Shown in pieces: positions 3,364 through 27,763 of a stretch of DNA of 64,000 bases; the first letter of the stretch is position 1, and every line of letters begins with the position of its first letter. The position numbers and the translations under genes were made by a program. The DNA comes from a phage: the sequence record PZ402301.1; one strand, written 5' to 3'. Below the pieces are notes generated by a model that had not been told where the DNA came from, did no database searches, and saw only the letters and a program-made list of their open reading frames with translations.

Positions 3364-4688
3364 TTGATTTCCTCTAAATCTTTAGTGTATTCTGTAACTA
3401 CATCAGTAGTTTTCCAATATTCGTTTTCTTCTTTTTTAGCTTTAGCTTCTTCAGCAAGTTTCTTTGCTTCGTCGGAAGTCATATGAAAAATGTTCATTCC
3501 AACTAGTTTATCAACATAAGAAGAATACATATCAATTTTAGAAAGTTCTTCAGTCAGTTCTTTGCGAGTTTTACCTTGTACAACAATTTCACCTGAAATC
3601 ACTTTCTTAATGAAATGTGCCTTGGCAAAGGCTAAACGAAATGCTGATTCAGTTTCTTTGATTTTATTATCAATTCGTTTTTGGACATAAGTTTTACGAA
3701 CTTCAACGAAGTCTTTGATTAAATCAACTACGTTATCGTAAACTTGCAGCTTTCCTTTCTCATTAATGACGGTAATATTCTGAGAACGACGCTCAATCAA
3801 TCCAAAGTCTTTCATAATTTTTGCATGGCGTTCTTCTTCGTTATCGCTCAAAGAATATTCTTTACGGAATTTAACTTTGAAGCCAAAACCATGCTCACCA
3901 CAAGCATCATCCCATGTAATGAAGCCTTTATCTTCAAGCGGGTCTAAGATTTTACTCACGTAAGTTTCACGATCATACTTATACGGAATCTCAGTGATAT
4001 TCATTTGAGTTCGTGAAGTAAACTTGTACGTTCCACGAATTTCATATTGACCGTCAATTTCAACGACTTCACCACGAAATTCTGGGAATTCTACCTTCGG
4101 TTTAGTTACTTTCTTTCCTTGAAGAGCTTGTAGTACAGCTTTCTTGACAGAAGAAACACTATGAGGAAGAATGTAAGTTGCATAACCAGTTGCAATACCG
4201 GAAACGCCATTAAGAAGAACAGTAGGAATAATAGGCAAATAGAAAGCAGGCGGAATGTGTTCTTTATCTTGATGTACCGGAGCATATTCAGTATCTTTAT
4301 ATACGCTATAGAAATTTTTACTTACACGAGCAAAAATATAACGGCTTGCAGCTGCTTTTTGAACGGTACGAGAACCAAAGTTTCCTTGACCATCTAACAA
4401 AGGAAAGTTATTATTCCAAGTATTAGCCATCAAAGCCCCCGCGTCTTGCGCAGAGTTTTCACCATGATGATATCCAAGGTCAGCTACACCACCTGCAATA
4501 GAAGCGAGCTTGTGAAACTTATCTTTATTTCCTCGCGCCAAATCAAGAGCTCGAGCAATAACAAACCGTTGAACTGGCTTAAATCCATCAATCATATTTG
4601 GAATAGCACGATTTTCAACCGTGTACATAGCATAAGCCAATGCTTCATTATCAATGATACTTTTTAAATCGCGATTATTCAGTTGCAT
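3360..4688 (-). CDS. 52: DNA topoisomerase II medium subunit (GyrA-like)
   Basis: 442 aa with GyrA-type N-terminus (AIPNMIDGFKPVQRFV) and the T4 gp52 length. Confidence 0.9.
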   Translation of the reverse strand: MQLNNRDLKSIIDNEALAYAMYTVENRAIPNMIDGFKPVQRFVIARALDLARGNKDKFHKLASIAGGVADLGYHHGENSAQDAGALMANTWNNNFPLLDGQGNFGSRTVQKAAASRYIFARVSKNFYSVYKDTEYAPVHQDKEHIPPAFYLPIIPTVLLNGVSGIATGYATYILPHSVSSVKKAVLQALQGKKVTKPKVEFPEFRGEVVEIDGQYEIRGTYKFTSRTQMNITEIPYKYDRETYVSKILDPLEDKGFITWDDACGEHGFGFKVKFRKEYSLSDNEEERHAKIMKDFGLIERRSQNITVINEKGKLQVYDNVVDLIKDFVEVRKTYVQKRIDNKIKETESAFRLAFAKAHFIKKVISGEIVVQGKTRKELTEELSKIDMYSSYVDKLVGMNIFHMTSDEAKKLAEEAKAKKEENEYWKTTDVVTEYTKDLEEIK

Positions 4689-13664: not shown

Positions 13665-14036
13665 TCACTCAAATTTAATGGCTTGAAGGAGACTAATAAT
13701 TCTCAAGCGACTTCTTTCATCTTTAACTGTAAAAGAAAGAGGGTCACCAGATTTCATAGTGATAGTGCATTCAAAATCAAAATCTTCAGGAACTTCTTCG
13801 AAGAAGTCAAATTCTTCATCATAAATTAGAACATTACTCTGAAAACTGTGAAGAATTTTTCCATCATTTCCAGATGCTGTACTAATCATTGTAACATTAT
13901 GGCCTTTCATATCTTCAACGATAAATTCGCTTGTAGATATTACGGCATTAATAGAACTATTCCTATAAATAGAAGAAAGTAAATATTTCTTTTCTTCACC
14001 TTCGCGAACACGATATTTCTTACCAATTTTAAACAT
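13665..14036 (-). CDS. hypothetical protein
   Basis: Minus-strand ORF; the track start is a GTG, and the ATG two codons in (MFKIGKKYRV) is more likely. Confidence 0.45.
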   Translation of the reverse strand: MFKIGKKYRVREGEEKKYLLSSIYRNSSINAVISTSEFIVEDMKGHNVTMISTASGNDGKILHSFQSNVLIYDEEFDFFEEVPEDFDFECTITMKSGDPLSFTVKDERSRLRIISLLQAIKFE

Positions 14037-14038
14037 AA

Positions 14039-14215
14039 TCACCCTTTAAGTAAGTCGTAAAATCCACCATTCACATGCTTAGGAGCAGAAGGCCGACGAG
14101 TAGACAAACGATGACATTTAGGGCAAACATCATTTTCTCGTTCAGAAATCTTTTTAATTTTTTCATATTCATGCCCACAATCTTCGGATTGGCATTTATA
14201 ATCATACATTGGCAT
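14039..14215 (-). CDS. FmdB-type zinc-ribbon protein (58 aa)
   Basis: Hand-found ORF MPMYDYKCQSEDCGHEYEKI...CPKCHRL: two CxxC pairs in the MPxYxYxC pattern typical of FmdB-family zinc ribbons; overlapped stop/start with both neighbours. Confidence 0.5.
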   Translation of the reverse strand: MPMYDYKCQSEDCGHEYEKIKKISERENDVCPKCHRLSTRRPSAPKHVNGGFYDLLKG

Positions 14216-17599: not shown

Positions 17600-17874
17600 T
17601 AAATTTTCCTCGCTAAATCACGAATTTGACCTACAGTATAATCTTGGATATAAACTTTATTAATGGGCTCATCAATAAATTTTGCCATAGATTCAATATC
17701 TTTTTGTATCTCTTCAAGACTGTATACTATCTTTAAAGCTTTTTCGCGAATAGTAACATTATCAGGTCCTGAATTTTCTTGAATGACAGCTTTAACATTT
17801 GCCATAAGAGATTTAAACTGATGCAAACTTAATTCAATCATTAATAACCGCCTTATAAAGATGGCTAATTTCAC
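17599..17874 (-). CDS. hypothetical protein (91 aa)
   Basis: Minus-strand ORF with stop/start overlap. Confidence 0.4.
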   Translation of the reverse strand: MKLAIFIRRLLMIELSLHQFKSLMANVKAVIQENSGPDNVTIREKALKIVYSLEEIQKDIESMAKFIDEPINKVYIQDYTVGQIRDLARKI

Positions 17875-18079
17875 CTAAAACATAATCACTGATTGTAACA
17901 GTTTTCACTTCACCGCAAAAGAATTCTAATGCAATCAAATCTCGTTCAATTTCTTCCAATTGAAGCATTAACTTTCCCGATTCAATTTTCACGTTTTTGC
18001 GATTTTTACTATAAGCTATTTCATAAATTTCGCTCACTTTATCTTGAAGTAGATAAAACTGGTCTTTAGTTATTTCCAC
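17834..18079 (-). CDS. hypothetical protein (81 aa)
   Basis: Minus-strand ORF between dda and dexA. Confidence 0.4.
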   Translation of the reverse strand: MEITKDQFYLLQDKVSEIYEIAYSKNRKNVKIESGKLMLQLEEIERDLIALEFFCGEVKTVTISDYVLGEISHLYKAVIND

Positions 18080-24018: not shown

Positions 24019-24264
24019 TTATTCACCAGTTACTTTCCACAAATCTTCGTTTGCAGCAATCCACGCAGCGCGTTGATTTTCTTCATATACTGTAGAATAT
24101 GCTGCTTTTTCTGAAGGGAATGTCTGGTAATGAGCGCCAGAAATTTTGTGAACGTCAGAATAAAGAGGGAAAGCTACAGAAATTTCCTTTCCTTCAATTT
24201 TCTTATTTCCATCTAATTTCTGCTCAAACGTTTTGATATTAACATAACCGCGAGTACTAGCCAT
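24019..24264 (-). CDS. soc: small outer capsid protein Soc
   Basis: 81 aa (MASTRGYVNIKTFEQ...) with the T4 Soc length and position, and a late-promoter motif upstream. Confidence 0.75.
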   Translation of the reverse strand: MASTRGYVNIKTFEQKLDGNKKIEGKEISVAFPLYSDVHKISGAHYQTFPSEKAAYSTVYEENQRAAWIAANEDLWKVTGE

Positions 24265-24292: not shown

Positions 24293-24305
24293 ATTATTTA
24301 TAATA
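24293..24305 (-). promoter_or_regulatory. late promoter (TATAAATA) for soc
   Basis: Plus-strand tatttata, i.e. TATAAATA on the minus strand, about 30 nt upstream of the soc start. Confidence 0.5.
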
Positions 24306-24346: not shown

Positions 24347-24865
24347 TTAATAACCTCGGTCTTGACGAGCGAAGTTTTCAGCATTTTTCAGATAATAAAG
24401 TTTAAAGATTTCTTCAGCAGTAAGGCCGAGACCTTGGAACATGTTCAGAACGAAATGAAGAATATCAATCATTTCGAATTTAATTTCCAACTGGTCTTGT
24501 GGAGACAAATCAGTAATTAGAGTTTCACGGCGTTCACCATGCTGTGACTTCCAAGGCTTCCATACAGCAGATGCATCTTTTTCACCATTGCTCATACCAC
24601 CAAGAGAAGTCAGAAGTTCGCGGAATTCATCATCAATGTAATCTTTCTGATTACGCAACCAATCAACAACTTCACCTGCAGTAGCCAAATCATCAGGATG
24701 ACGGTTATATTCAGGTTTATCTTTAGCTAAACGAACCTGCAAAGATTTCTGCATATCAAGCATAACCTGCAGCGGGTCTTTTTCATCACCGAGAATATCC
24801 CAGTATTCATTTTGAGCTTTATCAGCGCCTTCGATCAGTTGACTACATTCGTTAAAGTATGCCAT
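24347..24865 (-). CDS. 56: dCTPase/dUTPase gp56 (MazG-like)
   Basis: Position and MazG-like composition; start taken at the ATG after AAAGGA, giving about 171 aa (track ORF starts at a TTG). Confidence 0.75.
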   Translation of the reverse strand: MAYFNECSQLIEGADKAQNEYWDILGDEKDPLQVMLDMQKSLQVRLAKDKPEYNRHPDDLATAGEVVDWLRNQKDYIDDEFRELLTSLGGMSNGEKDASAVWKPWKSQHGERRETLITDLSPQDQLEIKFEMIDILHFVLNMFQGLGLTAEEIFKLYYLKNAENFARQDRGY

Positions 24866-24925
24866 TATTTTTCCTTTCAATTCATTAATAAGTTAAATAA
24901 TTATATCATTTGAATATATAAGCAA

Positions 24926-26265
<1,340 letters not shown>

Positions 26266-26274
26266 TATATTATC

Positions 26275-26325
26275 CTCAGCAGTTTATTTTATAATACCAC
26301 AACAAGCTGAGAAAGTAAACAAATT
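26275..26325 (-). promoter_or_regulatory. early promoter (GTTTAC, 18 nt, TATTAT)
   Basis: Minus strand GTTTACtttctcagcttgttgtggTATTAT; the spacer (ctcagc) is complementary to the downstream gctgagga SD region. Confidence 0.55.
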
Positions 26326-26369
26326 TTGTAAAATTTGCGATAAATATTTAATTTAAAGGAGGACGACGC

Positions 26370-26570
26370 ATGGTACAAAAATTAATGGCACTTGTTAATG
26401 CCATCAAAGGTAATAAAAAACGTATAGCTTTTACTATTTCTGCTATGATAGGAATTTTACTTTGGAATTTTGTTTTATCGCCAATTGCTATTGCTCATGG
26501 CGTTAATATTCCAGTAATTACTCTTGATACATTCGTAGATTTAGCATTTGCTTTGGTTGGGTTAATTTAA
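26370..26570 (+). CDS. plus-strand small membrane protein (66 aa)
   Basis: ATG preceded by AAAGGAGG at ideal spacing; two hydrophobic segments; lies in an intergenic gap and ends at the gp61 stop (convergent). Confidence 0.4.
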   Translation: MVQKLMALVNAIKGNKKRIAFTISAMIGILLWNFVLSPIAIAHGVNIPVITLDTFVDLAFALVGLI

Positions 26571-27595
26571 ATCTTAGCATATTTAGATAGCCGCATTTTA
26601 GCCATCAACCCTTGGGCAATATTATTTTTCATATATTCCATAATTTGTTCAGGGGTTGCACCTTCCTTTCTAATCATATCATTAACATCTTTTGATTTCC
26701 AGGGAGATTTATCCCAAAACATAACCCTTTCTCCTGCATCAACTAATTTAGTCATTCGTTTAATAGTGTCAGGATGACGAGGTTCATTATCTAAAACCCA
26801 TACACGTCTATCTTTAAATGGAACAATTTCTAGGTCTAATTGACCACCTGTAATAGCTATACCATTTTCAATAAAAAGTGAATCTATAGGTCCTTCTAGA
26901 ACATATACATCACCATCTTTGACCCGTTCAACGCCATAGATTTTTGTTGCCTCAGGATAAGCTTTGATGGTGATATATTTTTGAGGAGCATCTTTCTTTA
27001 ATGCACGGCCTTGAAAAGACTCAGCTTTTCCATTAGCATTATAAATTGGAATAACAAGACGAGGCTCAGGTATTTCCTTTTTATATGTTCCTGGCGCTAT
27101 ACTATTAACTAATTTAGGCCATTCAGTTGTAAACCAAAGATATTTCCATTTATCCTTTGGAATACAACGGGCTTTTACATATTTTATAATTGGATGGTCT
27201 TCCGCCAGTTTATCTAATCTAACGCATGACGGAAGAGATTTAATTATTTTCTTCTCAGGTTGTTTAGGAAGTTCTTTAGGTTTTTCTACTGGACGACTTT
27301 TACCTTTTTCTTTTCTTATTTCAAAGATATACTCACGATATAAATCAGGTTCAAACTCCTTTAAATATATTCCGATTGGTGCATGATAGTTACAGTTATA
27401 ACAATGAATATTTCCTTCATTATTATCGCCGTAATACCATCCACGGGCTTTATTTTGGTCGGTTTTTGAATCTCCACAAACAGGGCATCTAAACCGCAAT
27501 TTAAAAGTTGAACTATTATTTACTTGTGTGAATTTAGGTAAATGAGCTAATGCACGGTATGCAAACTCATTATCAATCCAAGGTATTGATGACAT
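26567..27595 (-). CDS. 61: DNA primase gp61
   Basis: 342 aa with N-terminal zinc ribbon (CPVCGDSKTD...CYNC) and a Toprim-like region (VLEGPIDSLF). Confidence 0.9.
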   Translation of the reverse strand: MSSIPWIDNEFAYRALAHLPKFTQVNNSSTFKLRFRCPVCGDSKTDQNKARGWYYGDNNEGNIHCYNCNYHAPIGIYLKEFEPDLYREYIFEIRKEKGKSRPVEKPKELPKQPEKKIIKSLPSCVRLDKLAEDHPIIKYVKARCIPKDKWKYLWFTTEWPKLVNSIAPGTYKKEIPEPRLVIPIYNANGKAESFQGRALKKDAPQKYITIKAYPEATKIYGVERVKDGDVYVLEGPIDSLFIENGIAITGGQLDLEIVPFKDRRVWVLDNEPRHPDTIKRMTKLVDAGERVMFWDKSPWKSKDVNDMIRKEGATPEQIMEYMKNNIAQGLMAKMRLSKYAKI

Positions 27596-27763
27596 TTTTA
27601 CTCTTCTTTTTCTTTAGATTCCTCTTTTTTCTTTTTAGGAATCTGTTCAGGACCTTTATTTACTACAGCACCTGACGTTGTTCCAGTAGAGATATTTTCA
27701 GGATTACCACCTGAATCTCCAGCGACCATATCTTCTTTGATAAATTCTTTATATGTTTTCATA

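Follow-up and report, generated by a model that had tools for sequence, protein, structure and literature searches.

In bacteriophage T4, the late promoter is the octamer TATAAATA at positions -13 to -6, of which the T at -13 is the least conserved base, with nine of fifty T4 sites having A there and relatives having A or T (PMC2988020, PMC1524935). The early and middle transcripts of T4 all have one polarity, either strand is used by late transcripts only, and at several T4 sites both strands serve as templates, but not at the same time (PMC2988020). Here, we analyzed a 66-aa ORF on the plus strand of a 64,000-nt stretch of phage DNA (record PZ402301.1; the whole stretch is hereafter called the window), and compared it with the described systems that it most resembles.

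A parallel in transcription is T4 soc, which lies about 2 kb away and, as would be the case for the 66-aa ORF, is driven by a late promoter from within the early-gene block; however, soc shares the strand of the early genes and its product is a soluble protein that decorates the capsid, whereas the 66-aa ORF is on the opposite strand and encodes a predicted membrane protein. As for the product, the T4 holin T, the antiholin RI, and the class I-III holins are small, late inner-membrane proteins that act via membrane-helix contacts, and the 66-aa protein can be likened to them, but it has no sequence or fold match to any and is not known to be linked genetically to lysis. Imm and Spackle are likewise small envelope proteins of T-even phages, and the Spackle gene (sp) belongs to this gene block as well, at a distance of about 2 kb; both, however, are early and encoded on the minus strand, and no similarity to them was found in an HMM search of the window and T4 1-100 kb. 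Finally, a short hydrophobic peptide whose gene would be fully covered by a convergent antisense transcript recalls type I toxin-antitoxin systems, with the difference that the antisense RNA here would be the tail of a protein-coding mRNA, and that the timing is already explained by a predicted late promoter.

The ORF (26370-26570, plus strand; ATG at 26370, TAA at 26568-26570; 201 nt) translates to MVQKLMALVNAIKGNKKRIAFTISAMIGILLWNFVLSPIAIAHGVNIPVITLDTFVDLAFALVGLI, a predicted small membrane protein of PHROG 2024, a phage protein family without an assigned function. It is preceded, with a 7-nt spacer to the ATG, by the Shine-Dalgarno sequence AAAGGAGG (26355-26362, plus strand), whose match to the ribosome-binding consensus is unusually long for the window: AAGGAGG occurs a single time in the 64 kb, both strands counted, against 4.3 expected, and this occurrence is the Shine-Dalgarno of the 66-aa ORF. 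Either GGAGG or GGAG is retained upstream of the ORF in all homologues examined. The region belongs to Tequatrovirus, and over the 1.4 kb around the ORF many Escherichia and Shigella phages match it at 96-98.6% identity. A preliminary description of this DNA had reported an isolated plus-strand ORF of 66 aa with a strong, ideally spaced Shine-Dalgarno, set among minus-strand genes and converging on the 3' end of primase, and this is what we found: gp56 dCTPase (24347-24880), the Dam methylase gene dam (24926-25705), a 186-aa ORF between dam and the 66-aa ORF (25705-26265), and DNA primase gp61 (26567-27595; phrog_47 DNA primase, E 9e-107) are all on the minus strand, in the order gp56, dam, 186-aa ORF, gp61, 61.1, 61.2, and sp. 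The stop codons of the 66-aa ORF and primase overlap by 4 nt in the palindrome TTAA (26567-26570), and convergence on primase was seen at all loci homologous to the ORF. The isolation is in fact stronger than had been claimed, with every annotated T4 CDS from 12 to 77,337 on the minus strand, and the 66-aa gene would be the sole plus-strand gene in the first 77 kb of T4.

By itself, the length of the ORF is not significant (another plus-strand ORF, of 64 aa, lies just upstream); it is the conservation, substitution pattern, Shine-Dalgarno, and promoter motif that are jointly well beyond chance. In hmmscan, the ORF gave a full-length match to phrog_2024 (E 8.2e-31, 106.6 bits), with residues 2-66 aligned to positions 1-65 of the 65-position profile. 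The locus was found in 505 phage records by DNA similarity and in 693 by tblastn with a 52%-identical metagenomic homologue as query, 685 of which had at least 80% of the protein in one uninterrupted alignment; overall, the gene is present in about 700 Tevenvirinae records, with tblastn finding a single place for the 66-aa protein per Tequatrovirus record. The frame was open in all 21 loci compared, which span several genera and include lineages down to 44-68% identity (the window, T4, T6, GEP001, Lutter, fPS-65, five IMG/VR contigs, five Logan metagenome contigs, Mosigvirus HX01 and two related contigs, Gaprivervirus VR26, and Yersinia phage P8; the IMG/VR scan contributed seven loci only). 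Within Tequatrovirus, pS was 0.20-0.23 against a pN of 0.02-0.04 (dN/dS 0.09-0.15), and the variable sites were distributed 7/1/12 over the three codon positions. Between genera, synonymous sites were saturated (pS 0.6-0.8) against a pN of 0.24-0.36, and Fisher tests on the substitution pattern gave p values from 2e-4 to 4e-9. No minus-strand ORF of at least 30 aa in the ORF list of the window overlaps 26370-26566, so that beyond the 4-nt stop overlap with primase this plus-frame pattern is not explicable by coding on the opposite strand. A leftover of a lost gene had been suggested as one origin of the ORF, with conservation and dN/dS across T-even genomes as a way to check it; because the frame is open, the family match is clear, and the ORF is under purifying selection, we reject the relic reading. 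Judged by these comparisons, the ORF is a genuine T4-type phage gene under strong purifying selection, and its product is very probably a small inner-membrane protein made late in infection.

The membrane assignment comes from the protein itself, which is hydrophobic overall (GRAVY +1.25), with a core at residues 19-42 where Kyte-Doolittle 15-residue means reach 2.07 and with a hydrophobic C-terminus. Direct reading of the sequence gives five Lys/Arg and no acidic residue in positions 1-18, and two Asp in the C-terminal part. An AlphaFold2 model (8-sequence alignment; mean pLDDT 75) has helices at residues 2-13, 16-42, and 52-62. One long membrane-spanning helix (the 27-residue 16-42) plus a short C-terminal helix is therefore what the model predicts, rather than two full spans. 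Of the earlier "two-helix hydrophobic protein", the hydrophobic character holds, while the two helices are better described as a single long span followed by a short helix; the more general "small membrane protein" agrees with the hydrophobic helix of 24-27 residues, the basic N-terminal flank, and the strong purifying selection. Because the N-terminus is basic, residues 19-42 are hydrophobic, and both Asp are C-terminal, the protein is predicted to be a single-pass inner-membrane protein with a cytoplasmic N-terminus and the short C-terminal helix at the periplasmic face; a helix of about 20 residues or longer and a positive cytoplasmic flank are both present by sequence and model prediction. 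The positions invariant in the group of homologues to which the 66-aa ORF belongs (group A) include AIKG, W32, N33, F34, P38, G44, P48, and V56-D57, and the membrane helix carries the conserved WNF..P.A. The conservation of Trp-Asn and Pro within a membrane helix suggests specific helix-helix contacts.

A second group of ORFs (group B) occupies the same spot, on the plus strand and convergent on primase, in Dhakavirus (JS98, JS10, and IME08), Marfavirus, Kanagawavirus (Q7622, CIP9, and PEi26), Gaprivervirus, and others, for a total of 130 records. These ORFs, exemplified by VR26 gp032 (YP_009213869.1), Marfa gp028, CIP9_133, and unannotated ORFs of JS98 and PEi26, are like group A in having the late motif and GGAGG upstream, and their products of 61-69 aa have in common with those of group A both the core W-N-[FL]-x-x-x-P-[IV]-A ... 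G-x-x-L-P-x-V and a basic N-terminal part. Identity between the groups is only about 27-30%, and the C-terminal helix is His/Gly-rich in group B but Asp-rich in group A; profile-profile comparison (hhalign) aligned the two with 97.6% probability (E 4e-12). Gaprivervirus VR26 has a second 66-aa ORF in tandem after the first (locus L018, 1501-1907), and in Yersinia phage P8 (locus L020, 1501-1816) a homing-endonuclease gene inserted beside primase has left only the last 33 residues of the second copy. Primase homologues were found in 2,279 records, including phages of Acinetobacter, Aeromonas, and Vibrio and cyanophages, and the tblastn matches to the small ORF, for both groups, came almost entirely from enterobacterial phages.

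Searches beyond these two groups returned the family alone, which is narrow and comprises 33 clusters at 90% identity. A profile search of 1.84 billion cluster representatives gave six matches, and since all of them belong to the same family or are fragments of its members, remote homologues provide no functional lead. No model of Pfam, NCBIfam, or PADLOC matched the 66-aa protein, even with the threshold relaxed to E 1; an HMM search with both groups against six-frame ORFs of the window and T4 1-100 kb recovered only the 66-aa ORF itself; and Foldseek with the AlphaFold2 model found no match in PDB and, in BFVD, only the family itself and the CIP9 group B protein (28% identity). Altered copies do occur. 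In T6 (NC_054907; locus L017, about 1192-1194), the start codon is ATT instead of ATG, which could reflect a weak start, a sequencing error, or a decaying gene, and the T6 annotators, given the ATT, called a 61-aa ORF from Met6. The OE5505 homologue lacks three residues of the membrane helix, one further copy is truncated to 56 aa, and another is frameshifted and 73 aa long. Since such copies exist, the gene is probably dispensable in culture.

The preliminary description had seen no canonical promoter upstream of the ORF, a statement that overlooked a variant of the T4-type late promoter, GATAAATA, at 26339-26346 on the plus strand, 23 nt 5' of the ATG. This predicted promoter has one mismatch to TATAAATA, a non-consensus G at the poorly conserved -13, and predicts a transcript start at about 26350-26355. 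In at least six genera, with upstream DNA that otherwise resists alignment, the core motif NATAAATA, of the gp55 late type, precedes the ATG by 15-23 nt and GGAGG by 8-14 nt. The base at -13 before it is G or A in Tequatrovirus, A in Mosigvirus, Dhakavirus, and the metagenomic lineage L005, C in Gaprivervirus, T in Marfavirus, and T or C in Kanagawavirus. The motif thus takes the form GATAAATA in T4, the window, and Lutter, AATAAATA in the T6 type, Mosigvirus, JS98, and L005, and CATAAATA in VR26, Yersinia phage P8, and PEi26, and a perfect TATAAATA precedes the small ORF in Marfa, CIP9, and Q7622; only lineages L008 and L009 have a mismatch inside the core (TATTAATA). The annotators of phage Lutter had labeled the same 8-mer as a promoter.

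Such words are rare in the window: ATAAATA has 8 sites against 38.7 expected on both strands, a depletion of about fivefold, with only two on the plus strand, and TATAAATA has 2 against 10.1 expected on both strands. With a probability of about 8e-4, a plus-strand ATAAATA would land by accident in the 26-nt slot where a promoter is expected. Since early and middle transcripts of T4 have one polarity (PMC2988020), a plus-strand gene at this locus should be late. Both features of a T4 late gene that we looked for, a TATAAATA-type element just upstream (a -35 element not being required) and a location on the strand that early and middle genes do not use, were found here, and late expression of the 66-aa gene is strongly inferred.

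The locus is also crossed by signals for the other strand. Codons 5-13 of the ORF hold a minus-strand hairpin that resembles an intrinsic terminator (26372-26407 with its T-run; hairpin 26382-26407), an 11-pair stem followed by TTTTTG, the RNA of which folds at -16.1 kcal/mol (z = -4.3). It is likely the terminator, and hence the 3' end, of the early transcripts of primase (gene 61), and the fPS-65 annotators marked a terminator at this site. The hairpin is retained in Tequatrovirus, has an analogue in L005, and is weak or absent in Mosigvirus and Gaprivervirus. Nucleotides 6-35 of the ORF are invariant across 11 Tequatrovirus loci, which fits a double constraint, by hairpin and protein, on this stretch. 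Because the likely terminator sits in codons 5-13, primase transcripts would be antisense to nearly the whole ORF, read-through from primase being predicted by the sequence to reach the hairpin at 26382-26407. The 104-nt spacer 5' of the ORF also contains a divergent early-type promoter, the sigma70-like TTTACT-17-TG-TATTAT (26291-26319, minus strand; extended TG), directed toward the 186-aa ORF and dam and recognized here by consensus match only; relatives have an early promoter annotated at the equivalent position.

A terminator scan of 25600-27700 found no plus-strand terminator, and since none follows the ORF, late transcripts probably continue antisense into gene 61. One could therefore ask whether this late antisense RNA, by helping to shut off primase, is the main function of the locus, with the ORF serving mainly to stabilize the 5' end of the RNA. 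Transcription of both strands at different times at several T4 sites, as introduced above, would agree with such an arrangement. Selection at the amino acid level and motifs shared by two paralogous groups, however, argue that the protein itself is constrained, and the hairpin and T-run between ORF and primase at L008 would limit read-through there. We consider this explanation improbable, even though it fares best among the alternatives, and an antisense role could coexist with a function of the protein itself. In L008, a divergent metagenomic lineage, the ORF and primase do not overlap; between them (4468-4490) stands the hairpin CTAGGGCTTGTCCCTAG and then ATTTTA, which could act as a terminator for the convergent pair.

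Another possibility is a real gene that is expressed early or in the middle period from a sigma70-type promoter, for which the preliminary description had named TTGTAA-17-TAATTT as possible. AT-rich DNA of this kind does yield weak plus-strand matches, such as that at 26307-26334 (9 of 12 positions), but sigma70-like matches in the region number 12 against 11.8 expected, which is chance level, and these hexamers vary between lineages, whereas NATAAATA is conserved; early and middle T4 transcripts, moreover, all come from the opposite strand (PMC2988020). We regard sigma70-driven expression as very unlikely, and late expression as the reading to be preferred.

A comparably small probability attaches to the protein being a holin, the name ("Holin") given to the OE5505 homologue in a single UniProt entry, A0A482MZV5. 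Small size, a membrane span, and probable late expression are what one would expect of a holin, but the C-terminus (...DTFVDLAFALVGLI) is hydrophobic to the last residue and is without the charged tail typical of holins, no holin model of Pfam or NCBIfam matched, and the name stands on that one automatic entry. Nor is the gene beside an endolysin gene, as T4 e is at 66,503-66,997 and the ORF at 17,738-17,938 with dam, gp56, and primase as neighbors, although the lysis genes of T4 are scattered and the linkage criterion is weak. T4, moreover, already has holin T. As the protein has neither the charged C-terminal tail nor the lysis-gene linkage, two of three features that define holins, we rejected the "Holin" label.

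The least probable alternative, an untranslated ORF conserved only as the 3' UTR and terminator of primase mRNA and the promoter region on the dam side, with the frame incidental or the relic of a dead gene, can draw on the terminator hairpin inside the ORF, the invariance of nucleotides 6-35 in Tequatrovirus, and the absence of the ORF from the T4 reference annotation, but we set it aside because changes outside the hairpin concentrate at third positions of the plus frame with a low dN/dS, the protein motif outlives both synonymous saturation and loss of the hairpin (in Mosigvirus, Gaprivervirus, and group B), the Shine-Dalgarno and start codon are retained, and there is no overlapping minus-strand ORF as described above.

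The gene is already catalogued, as PHROG 2024 and, in most relatives, as a hypothetical protein, but uncharacterized. Entries of this kind in GenBank represent the same gene (88-97% identity, 66 aa, convergent on primase, with the same Shine-Dalgarno and late motif), including RB32ORF030w (RB14/RB51), fPS-65 g034 (YP_010091340.1), and Lutter QLF82341.1, none of which has a function assigned. Two relatives (phages 107 and U115) have a homologue labeled "putative transmembrane protein". The label "putative head morphogenesis protein" in the T6 record was rejected, as the similarity notes of that record are scrambled (its dCTPase is "similar to ferredoxin"). In the records of T4, T2, PP01, JS98, JS10, IME08, and PEi26, the annotation is absent. 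T4 itself (NC_000866, 17738-17938, plus strand; locus L002, 3239-3439) has an intact 66-aa ORF with GATAAATA and AAAGGAGG that is unannotated. T4 is among the most closely studied viruses, yet its reference record is without this gene, and counts of reads or peptides made against annotated genes only would miss it. Shotgun proteomics may overlook the protein for a further reason, as LMALVNAIK is its sole tryptic peptide of suitable size and Lys and Arg are absent from the remaining 48 residues. In the literature on T4 ribosome profiling, small proteins, transcriptome and antisense transcription, CRISPRi-ART, HIDEN-SEQ, and ORF names, we found no mention of the gene. Adding it to the T4 annotation would help to close a small gap.

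As for how the gene may work, we propose that the locus is read in antisense only before late transcription, by primase transcripts ending at the hairpin in codons 5-13. Once replication is under way, RNA polymerase with gp55/gp33, activated by the gp45 clamp, would start a short-leader mRNA at about 26350-26355, and ribosomes would then load at the very strong Shine-Dalgarno. The 66-aa product would insert with its basic N-terminus (five Lys/Arg, no acidic residue) in the cytoplasm, the helix of about residues 19-42 with its invariant Trp-Asn and Pro would span the membrane, and the conserved G-x-x-x-P-x-V segment and the short acidic/hydrophobic C-terminal helix would lie on the periplasmic face. 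Beyond this point we can offer a guess, which is based on timing, size, and location only and which we hold tentatively: the conserved polar residues of the membrane helix may let the protein bind to or oligomerize with another membrane protein and thereby tune a late envelope event, such as the timing of lysis by holin and antiholin or lysis inhibition. Roles in membrane-linked anti-defense, exclusion, or head assembly are each somewhat less likely than lysis timing. It is a slightly more doubtful idea still that this uncharacterized Tevenvirinae superfamily, with two paralogous groups by primase and what would be the sole plus-strand gene in the first 77 kb of T4, represents a new late-acting membrane factor, such as an additional player in the timing or inhibition of lysis or a protein that shields the phage from membrane-based host defense. 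If the gene does affect lysis timing, exclusion, or evasion of defense, it would be a new component of a classic system; if not, it would be one more conserved phage membrane protein without an assigned role.

Several features of the surrounding DNA are worth recording in their own right. The low number of late-promoter words in the window fits with selection acting to keep stray late promoters out of the early region. A TATAAATA at 24295-24302 (minus strand) lies about 30 nt 5' of a soc-like gene (24019-24264, minus strand) and is the expected soc late promoter. A perfect TATAAATA also occurs at 13964-13971 on the plus strand, inside the minus-strand gene 13665-14042. No plus-strand ORF that follows it is convincing, and the site may either drive a late antisense RNA or have arisen by chance.

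The 186-aa ORF (phrog_8706, a family without an assigned function) is directly 5' of dam and shares 1 nt with the start of that gene. Two type II restriction-enzyme models, Pfam DpnII (E 0.002) and PADLOC REase_II (E 7.8e-5), match it weakly, in each case through their central part. Since GATC is the target of DpnII as well as of Dam, the ORF could have been left over from, or be a partner in, a DpnII-like restriction-modification pair. Alignments over at least 80% of 25600-27000, the 186-aa ORF included, were seen for about 146 of 504 Tequatrovirus records, and in T4 this ORF is deleted, with a 20-aa C-terminal remnant left.
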